IMG/VR virus record: IMGVR_UViG_2684623081_000001
DNA from: a virus
Lineage: Duplodnaviria > Heunggongvirae > Uroviricota > Caudoviricetes
Reading direction: 5' to 3' (one strand)
Length of the DNA: 10,678 nt
Part shown: positions 2,480 through 5,750 of the stretch, piece by piece
How positions within the stretch are numbered: the first letter of the stretch is position 1
How the letters are laid out: each line of letters starts with the position of its first letter
Translations under genes and position numbers: made by a program
Notes under the pieces: generated by a model
Told to the model about the DNA's origin: nothing
Seen by the model: the letters and a program-made list of their open reading frames with translations, nothing else
Database searches by the model: none

Positions 2480-2544
2480 AATAAGTCCTCACTATATTAA
2501 GATATTCAGTGATGAGATAAATAATTAGTTAATTAAGAATGATA

Positions 2545-2907
2545 TTAATGACCTGCTGCGCGGAGTTTTCCGTCAGGCTCACCGGCAAGAGTCAGTAATT
2601 GTCCCTGGTCTTCCTGCAGAATAGTCAGGCGACCACCGCGATTGACATACATCGGCGTTTCGGTGGTGTCTTCTTCGGAAATTTTCCCACGGTTAGTCGG
2701 GCGAACATATGAGAGTTTGTGTTTGATTTTCAGACGGTTCTCATCAAATGGTTCGATTTCCAGGTTGAGTGAGACCTTACCTTTGGTTTTCGTGTTCATC
2801 ACACCGGAAGCGACTTCACTGAGAACTGCGCCGATTTTGGTTTCAAATACGCCGCCGTCCAGCTCCCCGATAAATGCCTGCACATCAGTACTGCGTTCGC
2901 TAGCCAT
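2545..2907 (-). CDS. yfdP: Hypothetical prophage protein, 120 aa; first gene of the leftward block
   Basis: Start placed at the ATG 2905-2907 (MASERSTDV...), which has GAGGAG 7-8 nt upstream; the ORF track's 148-aa upstream start has no RBS. 120 aa matches yfdP. Confidence 0.55.
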   Translation of the reverse strand: MASERSTDVQAFIGELDGGVFETKIGAVLSEVASGVMNTKTKGKVSLNLEIEPFDENRLKIKHKLSYVRPTNRGKISEEDTTETPMYVNRGGRLTILQEDQGQLLTLAGEPDGKLRAAGH

Positions 2908-2993
2908 TTTGCTGCTCCTCATCATAACCGCAATGCGTCGAATGTTTATCAGCTTAACGTTGCGAAGCTTCAGGCAGCGGCATTTTCTCAACT

Positions 2994-3068
2994 GTCAGAC
3001 TCTGACCCGTCAAAATCTGACGCATCAAAATCTGACCCGTCAAAATTTGATGCGTCGAAATCTGGCAA
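2994..3068. repeat. Five tandem 15-bp iteron-like direct repeats (consensus GTCAAAATCTGACCC), each with internal GTCA-N5-TGAC dyad symmetry; degenerate copies continue to about 3145
   Basis: Units at 2994-3008, 3009-3023, 3024-3038, 3039-3053 and 3054-3068 read directly from the sequence. Further CCGTCAG-containing copies at 3084-3101, 3105-3119 and 3128-3145. Confidence 0.8.
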
Positions 3069-3264
3069 AAAATCGGGTTTTCACCCGTCAGAATCTGGCG
3101 GGGATCCGTCAGTAAAATCAAAACATGATCCGTCAGATAAAAAACCTTCTCGTCCGGACGCTTCGCAACCGGACACGCAGACGGATGAACAGGATTTTTT
3201 AACTCGCCATCCTGATGCGGTTGTATTCAGCCCTAAAAAGCGCCAGTGGGGAACGCAGGATGAT

Positions 3265-3633
3265 TTGACCTGCGCACAGTGGCTCTGGAAAAAAATCATC
3301 GCCCTGTACGAGCAGGCCGCCGAATGTGACGGCGAGGTGGTTCGTCCCAAAGAACCGAACTGGACAGCCTGGGCAAACGAAATTCGCCTGATGTGTGTGC
3401 AGGATGGTCGTACTCACAAACAAATCTGCGAGATGTACAGCCGCGTCAGCCGCGATCCGTTCTGGTGCCGTAACGTGCTCAGCCCGTCGAAGCTGCGGGA
3501 AAAATGGGATGAGCTTTCCCTGCGCTTATCGCCGTCCGTCAGCACGTACACAGAAAAACGCGAAGACCCGTACTTCAAAGCCAGTTACGACAATGTGGAC
3601 TACAGCCAGATCCCGGCAGGATTCAGGGGGTGA
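3265..3633 (+). CDS. yfdO: C-terminal fragment of a lambda O-like replication initiator (TTG start as drawn, 122 aa); probably a 5'-truncated gene
   Basis: The frame is open without any ATG/GTG/TTG from the stop at 2770-2772 to 3265 and reads through the iterons as a Ser/Asp/Pro/Lys-rich linker, as expected for an origin embedded in an initiator gene. Length matches yfdO, which I recall being annotated as a defective O-family protein. Confidence 0.55.
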   Translation: MTCAQWLWKKIIALYEQAAECDGEVVRPKEPNWTAWANEIRLMCVQDGRTHKQICEMYSRVSRDPFWCRNVLSPSKLREKWDELSLRLSPSVSTYTEKREDPYFKASYDNVDYSQIPAGFRG

Positions 3634-4124
3634 GCATGAGTCTTTTGAATGACGTTCAGAAATTCATTGAAGCCCATCCGGGCTGTACTTCCGGAGACAT
3701 TGCGGATGCTTTTGCAGGTTACTCACGGCAGCGCGTTCTGCAGTCAGCAAGCAAGTTACGTCAGAGTGGGCGTGTGGCTCACCGTTGTGAAGGAGATACA
3801 CACAGACATTTCCCGCGCCTGACTGAGAGAGCGCAGGATCCGGAACCACAACCAGTTCGTGAAACCAGACCTGTGCGCAATTTCTATGTCGGCACTAACG
3901 ACCCGCGGGTGATTTTGTGCCTGACCCGCCAGGCGGAAGAACTGGAGTCCAGGGGCTTATACCGTCGTGCTGCAACGGTGTGGATGGCGGCATTCCGTGA
4001 AAGCCACTCCCAGCCAGAACGAAACAATTTTCTGGCGCGTCGTGAACGGTGTTTACGGAAAAGCAGTAAGCGGGCTGCATCAGGTGAAGAGTGGTATCTC
4101 TCAGGGAATTACGTGGGGGCTTAA
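3630..4124 (+). CDS. yfdN: Hypothetical prophage protein, 164 aa from GTG 3630 (162 aa from ATG 3636)
   Basis: Intact ORF. AGGGGG lies 6 nt upstream of ATG 3636, so that may be the true start. The GTG start overlaps the yfdO stop (GTGA). Confidence 0.55.
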   Translation: MSMSLLNDVQKFIEAHPGCTSGDIADAFAGYSRQRVLQSASKLRQSGRVAHRCEGDTHRHFPRLTERAQDPEPQPVRETRPVRNFYVGTNDPRVILCLTRQAEELESRGLYRRAATVWMAAFRESHSQPERNNFLARRERCLRKSSKRAASGEEWYLSGNYVGA

Positions 4125-4399
4125 TGAGTAATAAATATTGCCAGGCGCTGGTGGAGCTGCGGAACAAACCAGCCCATGAACTGAAGGAAGTGGGCGATCA
4201 GTGGCGCACGCCGGACAACATTTTCTGGGGAATTAACACCCTGTTTGGCCCGTTTGTTCTGGATCTGTTTACTGATGGTGATAACGCCAAATGTGCCGCG
4301 TATTACACTGCGGAAGACAACGCGCTGGCGCATGACTGGTCAGAACGTCTTGCGGAGCTTAAAGGTGCTGCCTTTGGTAATCCCCCGTACCCGTGGTAA
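4124..4399 (+). pseudogene. yfdM: N-terminal fragment of a phage DNA N6-adenine methyltransferase, truncated just after the catalytic NPPY motif (91 aa)
   Basis: Sequence [10 protein letters not shown]...[27 protein letters not shown]...GNPPYPW followed by a stop. Phage Dam-type enzymes normally continue well beyond NPPY. ATG overlaps the yfdN stop (TAATG). Confidence 0.6.
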
Positions 4400-4448: not shown

Positions 4449-4967
4449 ATGTTGCAGGAGGAGCTTTGCAGCGTTGTGGAGGCCTCCGGTGCCAGCCTGG
4501 AGAAGGGGCGGCATGACCAGCTGCTTACCGCGCTTCGTGCGCTGCTGTTAAGCCGCAAGAATCCGTTTGGCGATATCAAATTGGACGGCACGGTGCAAAA
4601 GGCTCTCGAAAACCTTGGTTTGGGAGAAGCGGCTAAAAGAAATGTAGGGACAGGGGCGAATCAGATACCTGATATGGGTAGTTTTATGCTTTCTGCTTCA
4701 GTTCCTGGATATCAAAAATTGCCATCCGGTTTAATTATTCAATGGGGGCCAATTGATGTTCCGCTGACGTCTCAGGACACAGTAACCTATTTTCCGATTG
4801 CATTTCCGAATAGATGTCTGCGGGTATTTGCGACTCAGGATTACACTCCCGGCAGTGCAAATGTTGGCTATATAGCTTGTGCCGGTTATAACCAGGACCC
4901 GGTGAAATTTATTTCCAGAGCAGGCGTACCCGGTATCGGTGCTTCATTTTTCGCATTAGGGTGTTAA
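4449..4967 (+). pseudogene. yfdL: C-terminal fragment of a phage side tail-fibre protein, 172 aa from an internal ATG
   Basis: Tail-fibre C-terminal-like sequence begins within a few codons of the methyltransferase truncation point. No upstream tail-fibre shaft or baseplate genes. The ORF track's 240-aa version starts inside yfdM in another frame and is an overlap artefact. Confidence 0.55.
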
Positions 4968-5434: not shown

Positions 5435-5750
5435 CATCCGGCGCGGTGCTGGTATCTGTTGCCGTCACCGCGTCAATGTAATCCAGCACAGTGTTAAGTC
5501 GGGAGGTCTCTGCCTGCATCAGCTTCCGCCCAGCCTGTAATTTCAGTTGAATCAGACTAATGGAAGCCATTGCAGTATCAATCAGCGACTGGCGCTGTGC
5601 TTCTGCTGCATCTACTGCGACGCTATGCTGTGCCTCGGTATCCGTCACCCATTTCTCACCATCCCATTTATCGTATGGCGTTAATGGGGCGATAGTCGCG
5701 GGACGCATACAAACATAACCCCTGGATGTTATGTGTCTATCGAGAATCAA
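5406..5750 (-). pseudogene. tfaS: Tail-fibre assembly protein fragment (C-terminal half only), convergent with and overlapping yfdK
   Basis: Aligns by eye to the C-terminal half of lambda Tfa (YDKWDGEKWVTDTEAQ ... DTSTAPDVIWPELP). N-terminal half absent; ORF as drawn starts at TTG. Confidence 0.6.

Follow-up and report, generated by a model that had tools for sequence, protein, structure and literature searches.

The window analyzed here, that is, the whole 10,678-nucleotide stretch of IMG/VR virus record IMGVR_UViG_2684623081_000001 (Caudoviricetes), is the CPS-53/KpLE1 cryptic prophage of Escherichia coli K-12 according to the RefSeq annotation of the identical K-12 sequence, and its bases 2500–3700 show 100% identity to the K-12 strains ER1709 and J53. 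In that annotation the minus strand carries torI, yfdT, a phage protein gene, yfdR, yfdQ and yfdP, and the plus strand carries a pseudogene, yfdN, a truncated yfdM and tail-fibre genes. The present work concerns the pseudogene (2926–3633, plus strand), which is the remainder of a phage replication initiator gene, and an array of 15 bp repeats inside it, which is considered as the relic of a replication origin. To its left lies yfdP (2545–2907, minus strand; RefSeq annotation, PHROG 204), the last early-left gene kept before a deletion, and to its right lies yfdN (3630–4124, plus strand), a gene of the PerC family that follows the initiator in all intact relatives.

A first-pass annotation of this DNA had placed a relic origin at 2773–3264, in a frame that stays open without any start codon and continues into yfdO, and had put the interval between the divergent genes yfdP and yfdO at 357 bp. 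The latter value is correct (from the yfdP start at 2907 to the yfdO start at 3265). The frame is open from a TGA stop at 2770–2772 up to the stop at 3631–3633, and its first ATG, GTG or TTG codon is the TTG at 3265 with which yfdO starts, as described. However, the first 153 nt of this frame (2773–2925) are the antisense of yfdP together with the yfdP leader and contain no initiator DNA, and their openness is a matter of chance only. The limits of the element therefore have to be redrawn: initiator DNA is confined to 2926–3633, and the repeats with their variant copies span only 2994–3129.

The pseudogene comprises codons 79–313 of a 313-codon O-type replication initiator gene truncated at its 5' end, as established by alignment to an intact gene (locus L002, 4768–5709). 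The annotated yfdO open reading frame (3265–3633), which matches PHROG 391 at 9e-58, is the tail of this pseudogene, and the Prokaryotic Genome Annotation Pipeline (PGAP) places a pseudogene with the product 'helix-turn-helix domain-containing protein, missing N-terminus' at the same coordinates. The deletion junction at 2925/2926 reads CATCA-TA-ACCGC, with a 2 nt TA microhomology common to both parents, and corresponds to codons 78/79 (GGT|AAC) of the intact gene. In a megablast search, part of 2500–3700 was found in 2,818 E. coli genomes, and the matches break sharply at 2925/2926: many genomes match 2925–3700 only and carry a full-length 'helix-turn-helix domain-containing protein', and others match 2500–2926 only and carry yfdP.

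The segment 2926–3633 shows 98–99% DNA identity to the 3' three-quarters of a 313-amino-acid gene that is intact in O157 prophages and in SfII. In an O157:H7 prophage this gene (942 nt, 313 amino acids) is preceded by genes for a cI-like repressor, a cro-like protein, a cII-like ymfL product and a DUF4222 protein, and is followed by yfdN and a complete adenine methyltransferase gene; gp41 of Shigella phage SfII ('O protein family protein') is 99.7% identical and has the same gene context. The intact protein contains an HTH_36 winged helix (PF13730, 4e-11) at residues 23–70, with a weak DnaD_N match, and matches PHROG 391 ('replication initiation O-like') at 4e-135. Furthermore, its residues 166–277 share 39% identity with the C-terminal domain of λ O (BLASTP E value 1e-26; tblastn 1e-17), and the corresponding region of the window lies at 3187–3522 on the plus strand (λ O residues 171–270). 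A Pfam search with the K-12 fragment alone gave nothing useful, and the initiator homology was revealed only via the intact relatives, PHROGs and tblastn. Both the O-type homology and the missing N-terminal domain for which a search of intact relatives had been suggested are thus found. What K-12 has lost is residues 1–78 with the winged helix, together with the upstream DUF4222 gene, the cII-like ymfL, cro and cI, which agrees with the supposed loss of the immunity region and of the domain for DNA binding. Among 5,426 complete E. coli genomes, about 1,580 (1,577; ~29%) carry this initiator allele, in SfII, e14-like and CPS-53-like prophages. In this phage group, the C-terminal domain of the initiator is similar to the part of λ O that binds P, and the last ~33 residues (REDPYFKASYDNVDYSQIPAGFRG and those preceding it) are common to alleles with unrelated C-terminal domains.

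The repeat array (2994–3069) consists of five in-phase 15 bp units, or iterons, with the core GTCA-N5-TGAC, which follow one another head to tail: TCAGACTCTGACCCG at 2995, TCAAAATCTGACGCA at 3010, TCAAAATCTGACCCG at 3025, TCAAAATTTGATGCG at 3040 and TCGAAATCTGGCAAA at 3055. Every one of the five units contains the dyad (G)TCA-N5-TGA(C), and Tandem Repeats Finder reports a period of 15 (81% matches, score 86) as well as a period of 30 (88% matches, score 100). The degenerate copies noted earlier along with the five exact-phase repeats are also present, namely a degenerate iteron, GTCAGAATCTGGC, at 3087–3099, which is read in a different frame in phiP27 (L17), and a variant iteron, ATCAAAACATGAT (ATCA-AAACA-TGAT), at 3117–3129. 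Within the latter, TCAAAACATGA is kept once or twice, 24 bp apart, in phiP27/Proteus/Providencia-type genes. The pattern TCA-N5-TGA occurs nine times in the window, four of them inside 100 bp, and the largest such cluster in 500 dinucleotide-preserving shuffles of the window had a mean of 1.15 and a maximum of 3. In the intact gene the repeats lie at codons 102–126 and beyond, beginning ~70 nt past the part that encodes the winged helix and thus between HTH_36 and the λ O-like domain. Immediately to the right of the iterons is the most AT-rich 40-mer of the gene (3109–3148, 70% AT), a candidate unwinding region. GATC sites are located inside this 40-mer (3127–3130) and just upstream of it (3103–3106). 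The decamer GATCCGTCAG occurs twice, 24 bp apart, at 3103–3112, where it overlaps the left edge of the AT-rich stretch, and at 3127–3136, inside it. Two Dam sites therefore stand beside the iterons, and in the intact relatives the second gene downstream codes for an adenine methyltransferase of their own (yfdM, of which K-12 keeps a truncated form).

Because the period is a multiple of three and the units encode an S-K-S-D-P/A peptide, the alternative of a coding repeat needed to be tested. To this end, 59 loci from ~20 genera encoding the same winged-helix type were collected, and 48 distinct genes were used, with the repeat units chosen by their peptide pattern only. Nearly all of the genes contain an in-phase TCA-N5-TGA array that starts at gene nt 304–319 and has two to six exact copies. 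In the units of the 48 genes, the first serine is encoded by TCA in 95% of cases (147/155) against 11% in the winged-helix part, lysine is encoded by AAA in 107 of 107 cases against 58%, and the second serine is encoded by TCT in 84% against 8%. In a comparison of the Shigella gene, as the reference, with 12 genes from other genera, identical residues had the same codon in 87% of cases in the units and in 43% in the winged helix (Fisher p = 3e-28, a value that overstates independence because the pairs share one reference and common ancestry, although the contrast is nevertheless large). In these 12 inter-genus pairs the amino-acid identity is lower in the units than in the winged helix. Codons that are more conserved and amino acids that are less conserved point to selection on the DNA rather than on the protein. 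In addition, GGTTTTGACCCTTCAGAATCTGG is retained after a 1 nt indel in phiP27 (L17) and in a Citrobacter gene, where it is read as VLTLQNL and not as GFHPSES.

Other alleles carry repeats of their own. An E. coli allele with a different winged helix (L003) has GTGCA-N5-TGCAC units in the same place and with the same 5-5-5 geometry, and in a third allele (L010) the motif GGTCAAARTGA recurs at intervals of ~23 bp, occupies all three reading frames and precedes an AT-rich stretch of its own; this allele joins the K-12 sequence only from position 3134 onward. In phiP27, an SfII-like winged helix and its repeats are combined with a different C-terminal domain and a DnaC/helicase pair. This mixture and the allele-specific repeats indicate that winged helix, repeats and AT-rich stretch form a single module that moves as a whole, which matches the general picture of the modular travel of a DNA-binding domain with its repeats in λ, φ80 and P22.

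The same DNA is known in a host context. The yfdO/yfdP spacer gave the highest peak of the LysR-type regulator SrsR (YgfI) in genomic systematic evolution of ligands by exponential enrichment (gSELEX), with a footprint of 66 bp and four listed boxes, TCAaATTTTGa, TCAGATTTTGa, TCAGATTTTGa and TCAGAgTcTGa (Kobayashi et al., 2022; PMC9181523). Reverse-complemented, these four boxes correspond exactly to the units at 3040, 3025, 3010 and 2995, i.e. units 1–4. Both divergent transcripts, yfdONMLK and yfdPQ, are activated by SrsR, which also helps cells to tolerate hydrogen peroxide (H2O2), and deletions of yfdK, yfdO and yfdS render cells sensitive to H2O2 (PMC9181523). The array therefore has the features of an operator of the SrsR regulon, namely the 11 bp box TCAGATTTTGC, a footprint and SrsR-dependent flanking genes; the sequence identity of units 1–4 to the boxes was checked here, and binding and regulation are taken from PMC9181523. 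That paper treats the spacer DNA as an intergenic promoter region, and in its text the word 'iteron' is absent and a replication origin is nowhere mentioned. The truncation (RefSeq) and the repeats (as SrsR boxes) are thus already known, as parts described separately; what seems new is the connection of the SrsR boxes with phage iterons.

Taken together, the repeats and the AT-rich stretch are very probably the cis-acting vestige of a lambdoid origin of replication, embedded in an initiator gene that has lost its 5' part, and the best reading of the array today is a relic origin whose iterons were taken over as a binding array by a host regulator. Of the features by which oriλ is recognized, three are found here: the position between the DNA-binding and C-terminal domains, dyad repeats that are conserved as DNA and specific to the winged-helix type, and an adjoining AT-rich region, the last of these a moderate signal. 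The layout of a lambdoid origin in an initiator linker, as first proposed, is thus largely supported: the truncation, the homology and the constraint at the DNA level are observed directly, and from them we infer initiator binding and the firing of the origin.

In intact relatives, the initiator consists of three parts: an N-terminal winged helix (HTH_36, amino acids 1 to ~90), a low-complexity linker whose DNA bears the probable origin and a λ O-like C-terminal domain. The origin there would comprise about five head-to-tail 15 bp sites of the form CGTCA-AAATC-TGACG, two or three variant sites and then the AT-rich stretch. By analogy to λ O, φ80 gp15 and P22/L gp18, winged-helix dimers would bind the dyad sites, the resulting nucleoprotein complex would open the adjoining AT-rich DNA and the C-terminal domain of the initiator would recruit the helicase. 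In K-12, an illegitimate deletion at the TA microhomology (2925/2926) removed codons 1–78 together with DUF4222, the cII-like ymfL, cro, cI and the early-left genes as far as yfdP. Without the cognate DNA-binding domain in cis and without pR, the origin is orphaned.

Several points weigh against this reading. The AT-rich stretch, at 70% over 40 bp, is a modest signal. The sites are spaced at 15 bp, more tightly than in λ (~20–24 bp), and share flanks with their neighbours, which may limit the number of dimers bound at once. No partner gene for a helicase loader or helicase stands beside the initiator, the next gene being yfdN, and in the SfII/CPS-53 phage group no λ P, DnaC or DnaB homologue follows the initiator, which places the helicase-loading step in question. 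In this group a PerC-family gene follows instead (at 5706–6200 in L002 and at 4945–5430 in L004, as yfdN does in the window); YfdN was considered as an analogue of λ P and showed no similarity to it. Coding and DNA constraints are entangled, since 15 bp is a multiple of three and almost all copies lie in one frame, and common descent as well as homogenization of the repeats might have inflated the outcome of the codon test. Furthermore, no initiator-binding or replication experiment was found for this initiator family, and the only protein shown to bind the repeats is SrsR.

The last of these points leads to an alternative in which the repeats evolved, in the phages too, as SrsR operators rather than for the initiator, so that a regulatory site merely happens to lie inside the initiator gene. 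The array is, after all, the strongest SrsR site in the genome, with its 66 bp footprint and the activation of both flanking operons (PMC9181523). In intact phages, however, it lies in the middle of a gene with no divergent promoters to serve, and the divergent-promoter context in K-12 arose by deletion. The motif tracks the winged-helix type and not the host, other E. coli alleles bearing other repeats, and it is kept in prophages of Proteus, Providencia, Yersinia, Rosenbergiella and Tatumella (the distribution of SrsR in these genera was not part of the comparison). An origin of the repeats as SrsR operators is therefore considered highly improbable. Still less credible is a coding repeat only, i.e. 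a low-complexity disordered S-K-S-D-P/A linker made by slippage and without a function as DNA, and a coding repeat of an unrelated protein was one of the outcomes that the first-pass annotation had itself named as overturning its proposal. Although the period equals five codons, the copies lie nearly all in frame 0 and the peptide is of low complexity with a poorly conserved amino-acid sequence, synonymous positions are far better conserved than in the flanking domain and the amino acids less so. The first serine is hardly ever encoded by AGY, TCC or TCG, phiP27 and L053 preserve one copy in another frame, another allele has repeats out of coding phase (23 bp) at the same place, and a protein footprint covers the repeats as DNA (SrsR; PMC9181523). 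The synonymous constraint, the frame-shifted copy and the allele-specific repeats thus leave the coding-repeat reading already largely refuted.

A further alternative accepts the origin and holds that it is still active or useful in trans, in that the initiator of an infecting or induced phage of the same initiator type binds the CPS-53 array, which then fires in situ or titrates the initiator as a decoy hindering the phage. The full repeat set and the AT-rich stretch are intact, with ~99% identity to functional phages, this allele of the initiator occurs frequently in E. coli (1,577 genomes), and ectopic copies of oriλ are reported to inhibit λ (PMC4488673, PMC3349717). On the other side, CPS-53 offers a single chromosomal copy only, and transcription from pR through the origin has been lost. 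The oriλ effects were reportedly obtained with plasmid-borne copies, as opposed to the one chromosomal copy here. The matching winged helix that K-12 itself encodes (e14 ymfN) is probably cut within the wing of the domain, judging from the sequence pattern, and no experiment bears on this initiator family. A role in trans is accordingly regarded as unlikely, and a relic origin captured by SrsR remains the preferred reading.

The site of the truncation is itself recurrent. Nine distinct junctions, each with a partner of its own, cluster in the hexamer GGTAAC (codons 78/79), ~68 bp to the left of the first iteron at the GGT|AAC breakpoint. Four of them keep the right part of the gene: K-12 CPS-53 (window 2925–2926), where the partner is the yfdP leader, NCTC9038 (L071, ~11092), where it is mid-ymfL, and the viral contigs L124 and L160, where it is the start of ymfL and the end of cro, respectively. 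The other five keep the left part: K-12 e14 (L070, 8404/8405), joined to terminase, NRZ100214 (L074, ~3205), joined in frame to a tail fibre, and the viral contigs L200 (out of frame), L201 (in frame) and L202 (out of frame). The chance of three further junctions falling within 6 of 942 nt is ~3e-7, and chance is negligible as a cause of the clustering. For another allele, with GGTAACT at the same codons, hardly any partial copies are on record (919 of 935 entries being full length). The possibility of a hairpin at the breakpoint was rejected, since the DNA fold is no better than in shuffles (z = −0.48), as was a crossover site of a Pin invertase, there being no resemblance to the hix/gix consensus.

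GGTAACC is an instance of the palindrome GGTNACC, and the extents of the retained ends fit a cut with a 5 nt stagger. The terminase partner in e14 has GGTAACC 10 nt from the junction, and a GGTNACC-type site is absent from all four left partners of the junctions that keep the right part. CPS-53 contains a second internal deletion at 4388–4390, which joins the truncated yfdM to the tail-fibre gene yfdL with a TAC microhomology and beyond which the sequence is 94% identical to e14 stfP (ycfK); an intact GGTAACC at 4395 stands 5–7 nt to the right of this junction. The evidence for restriction-type cutting at GGTNACC is mixed. We hold it as a tentative possibility, and with more doubt than conviction, that the truncation is non-random, i.e. 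that a site-specific break at GGT|AAC, by a sequence-specific nuclease or an origin-linked event, beheads initiators and leaves defective prophages with an orphan origin, which in K-12 was captured as the top SrsR site.

The e14 junction is of particular interest in K-12. The gene ymfN of e14 (oweE in MG1655), annotated as a 'chimeric replication protein/phage terminase', begins with codons 1–78 of the same allele, with 99% identity, which at CAGGGT|GATGG continue in frame into a terminase fragment. One initiator allele is thus split between two prophages of K-12, with one half in each (8171–8404 of L070, which is NC_000913.3 1196000–1212000, and window 2926–3633). The segment lost from CPS-53 coincides almost exactly with the segment kept by e14 (ymfH to codon 78, 3,327 bp), the left ends agreeing within 4 nt and the right ends within 1 nt. 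A cut-and-paste transfer of 3.3 kb from CPS-53 into e14 is nevertheless not required, because the xisE–ymfH junction is natural in complete e14-like prophages (H22, NCTC9038) and the hotspot accounts for the right end that both prophages share; the two K-12 junctions together cannot be derived from any single two-break event. Strain H22 has a complete e14-like prophage with the whole initiator gene. In the e14-like prophage at icd in NCTC9038 (L071, 11092–11833), the initiator fragment from codon 79 onward is followed directly by the tail tube gene; an orphan origin is thus again kept between two deletions, as in CPS-53.

The CPS-53 deletion may also have affected transcription of yfdP. A consensus scan found a weak σ70-like promoter match facing yfdP (2921–2948, minus strand; −35 TAAACA, 16 nt spacer, −10 TATGAT), which agrees with the consensus at 9 of 12 positions, one such match being found against 0.3 expected. 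The −35 element of this predicted promoter comes from initiator DNA, its −10 element lies across the deletion junction, and it is ~50–100 bp from the SrsR-bound repeats. Judged by this consensus match, the deletion may have created a fusion promoter for yfdP that is served by the nearby SrsR array.

These results add an explanation of the SrsR site, origin evidence at the sequence level for a very common initiator type and a breakpoint hotspot. In all likelihood, the strongest genomic site of SrsR, a tandem array in a cryptic prophage, consists of the iterons of a defunct phage origin. This makes sense of a published finding that had been puzzling and offers a clear candidate for the capture of phage replication DNA by a host regulator. 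A testable question follows, namely whether SrsR interferes with the replication of live SfII- or e14-type phages. No origin had previously been described for this initiator type, and the genome papers on SfI, SfII and SfIV nowhere mention a replication origin; a probable origin with its specificity module is now defined by sequence for a type carried by ~29% of the complete genomes of E. coli and also by Shigella phages that convert serotype. If the recurrent breakpoint stems from a specific cut, it would represent a mechanism that generates defective prophages and would also explain why K-12 holds two halves of one initiator gene in two prophages.

Among known systems, the closest comparison is with oriλ, which lies inside gene O and consists of four ~19 bp dyad iterons plus an AT-rich region. 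In both cases the origin is situated in the initiator linker between the N-terminal DNA-binding and C-terminal domains, the dyad sites have a 5 bp centre, the AT-rich stretch lies to the right and the C-terminal domains are homologous (39%). In λ O, analyzed as a control, the iterons are at gene nt 349–430 and the AT maximum (80% AT) is at 436, directly to their right. The systems differ in that the initiator studied here has an N-terminal HTH_36 and no match to PF04492 (Phage_rep_O), which λ O matches at 6e-36, so that only the C-terminal domain is common to both; in that its 15 bp sites are contiguous and in coding phase, whereas the exact repeats of λ start at gene nt 349, 393 and 416; and in the lack of a λ P homologue after the initiator. 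As in φ80 gene 15 and P22/L gene 18, each initiator type bears its own repeats in its own coding region, and in the φ80 record four binding sites of gp15 are annotated at the equivalent position of gene 15; the repeat sequences, the N-terminal domains and the helicase partners are different. In phage L, six 11 bp repeats were proposed as the origin on sequence grounds alone (PMC8022706), which is the same level of evidence as that presented here. The oweE/ymfN gene of e14 represents the same allele broken at the same codon, with the winged helix and a terminase fusion and without the iterons. Finally, the SrsR box array (PMC9181523) is the identical DNA, which is here traced to an ancestral phage origin.

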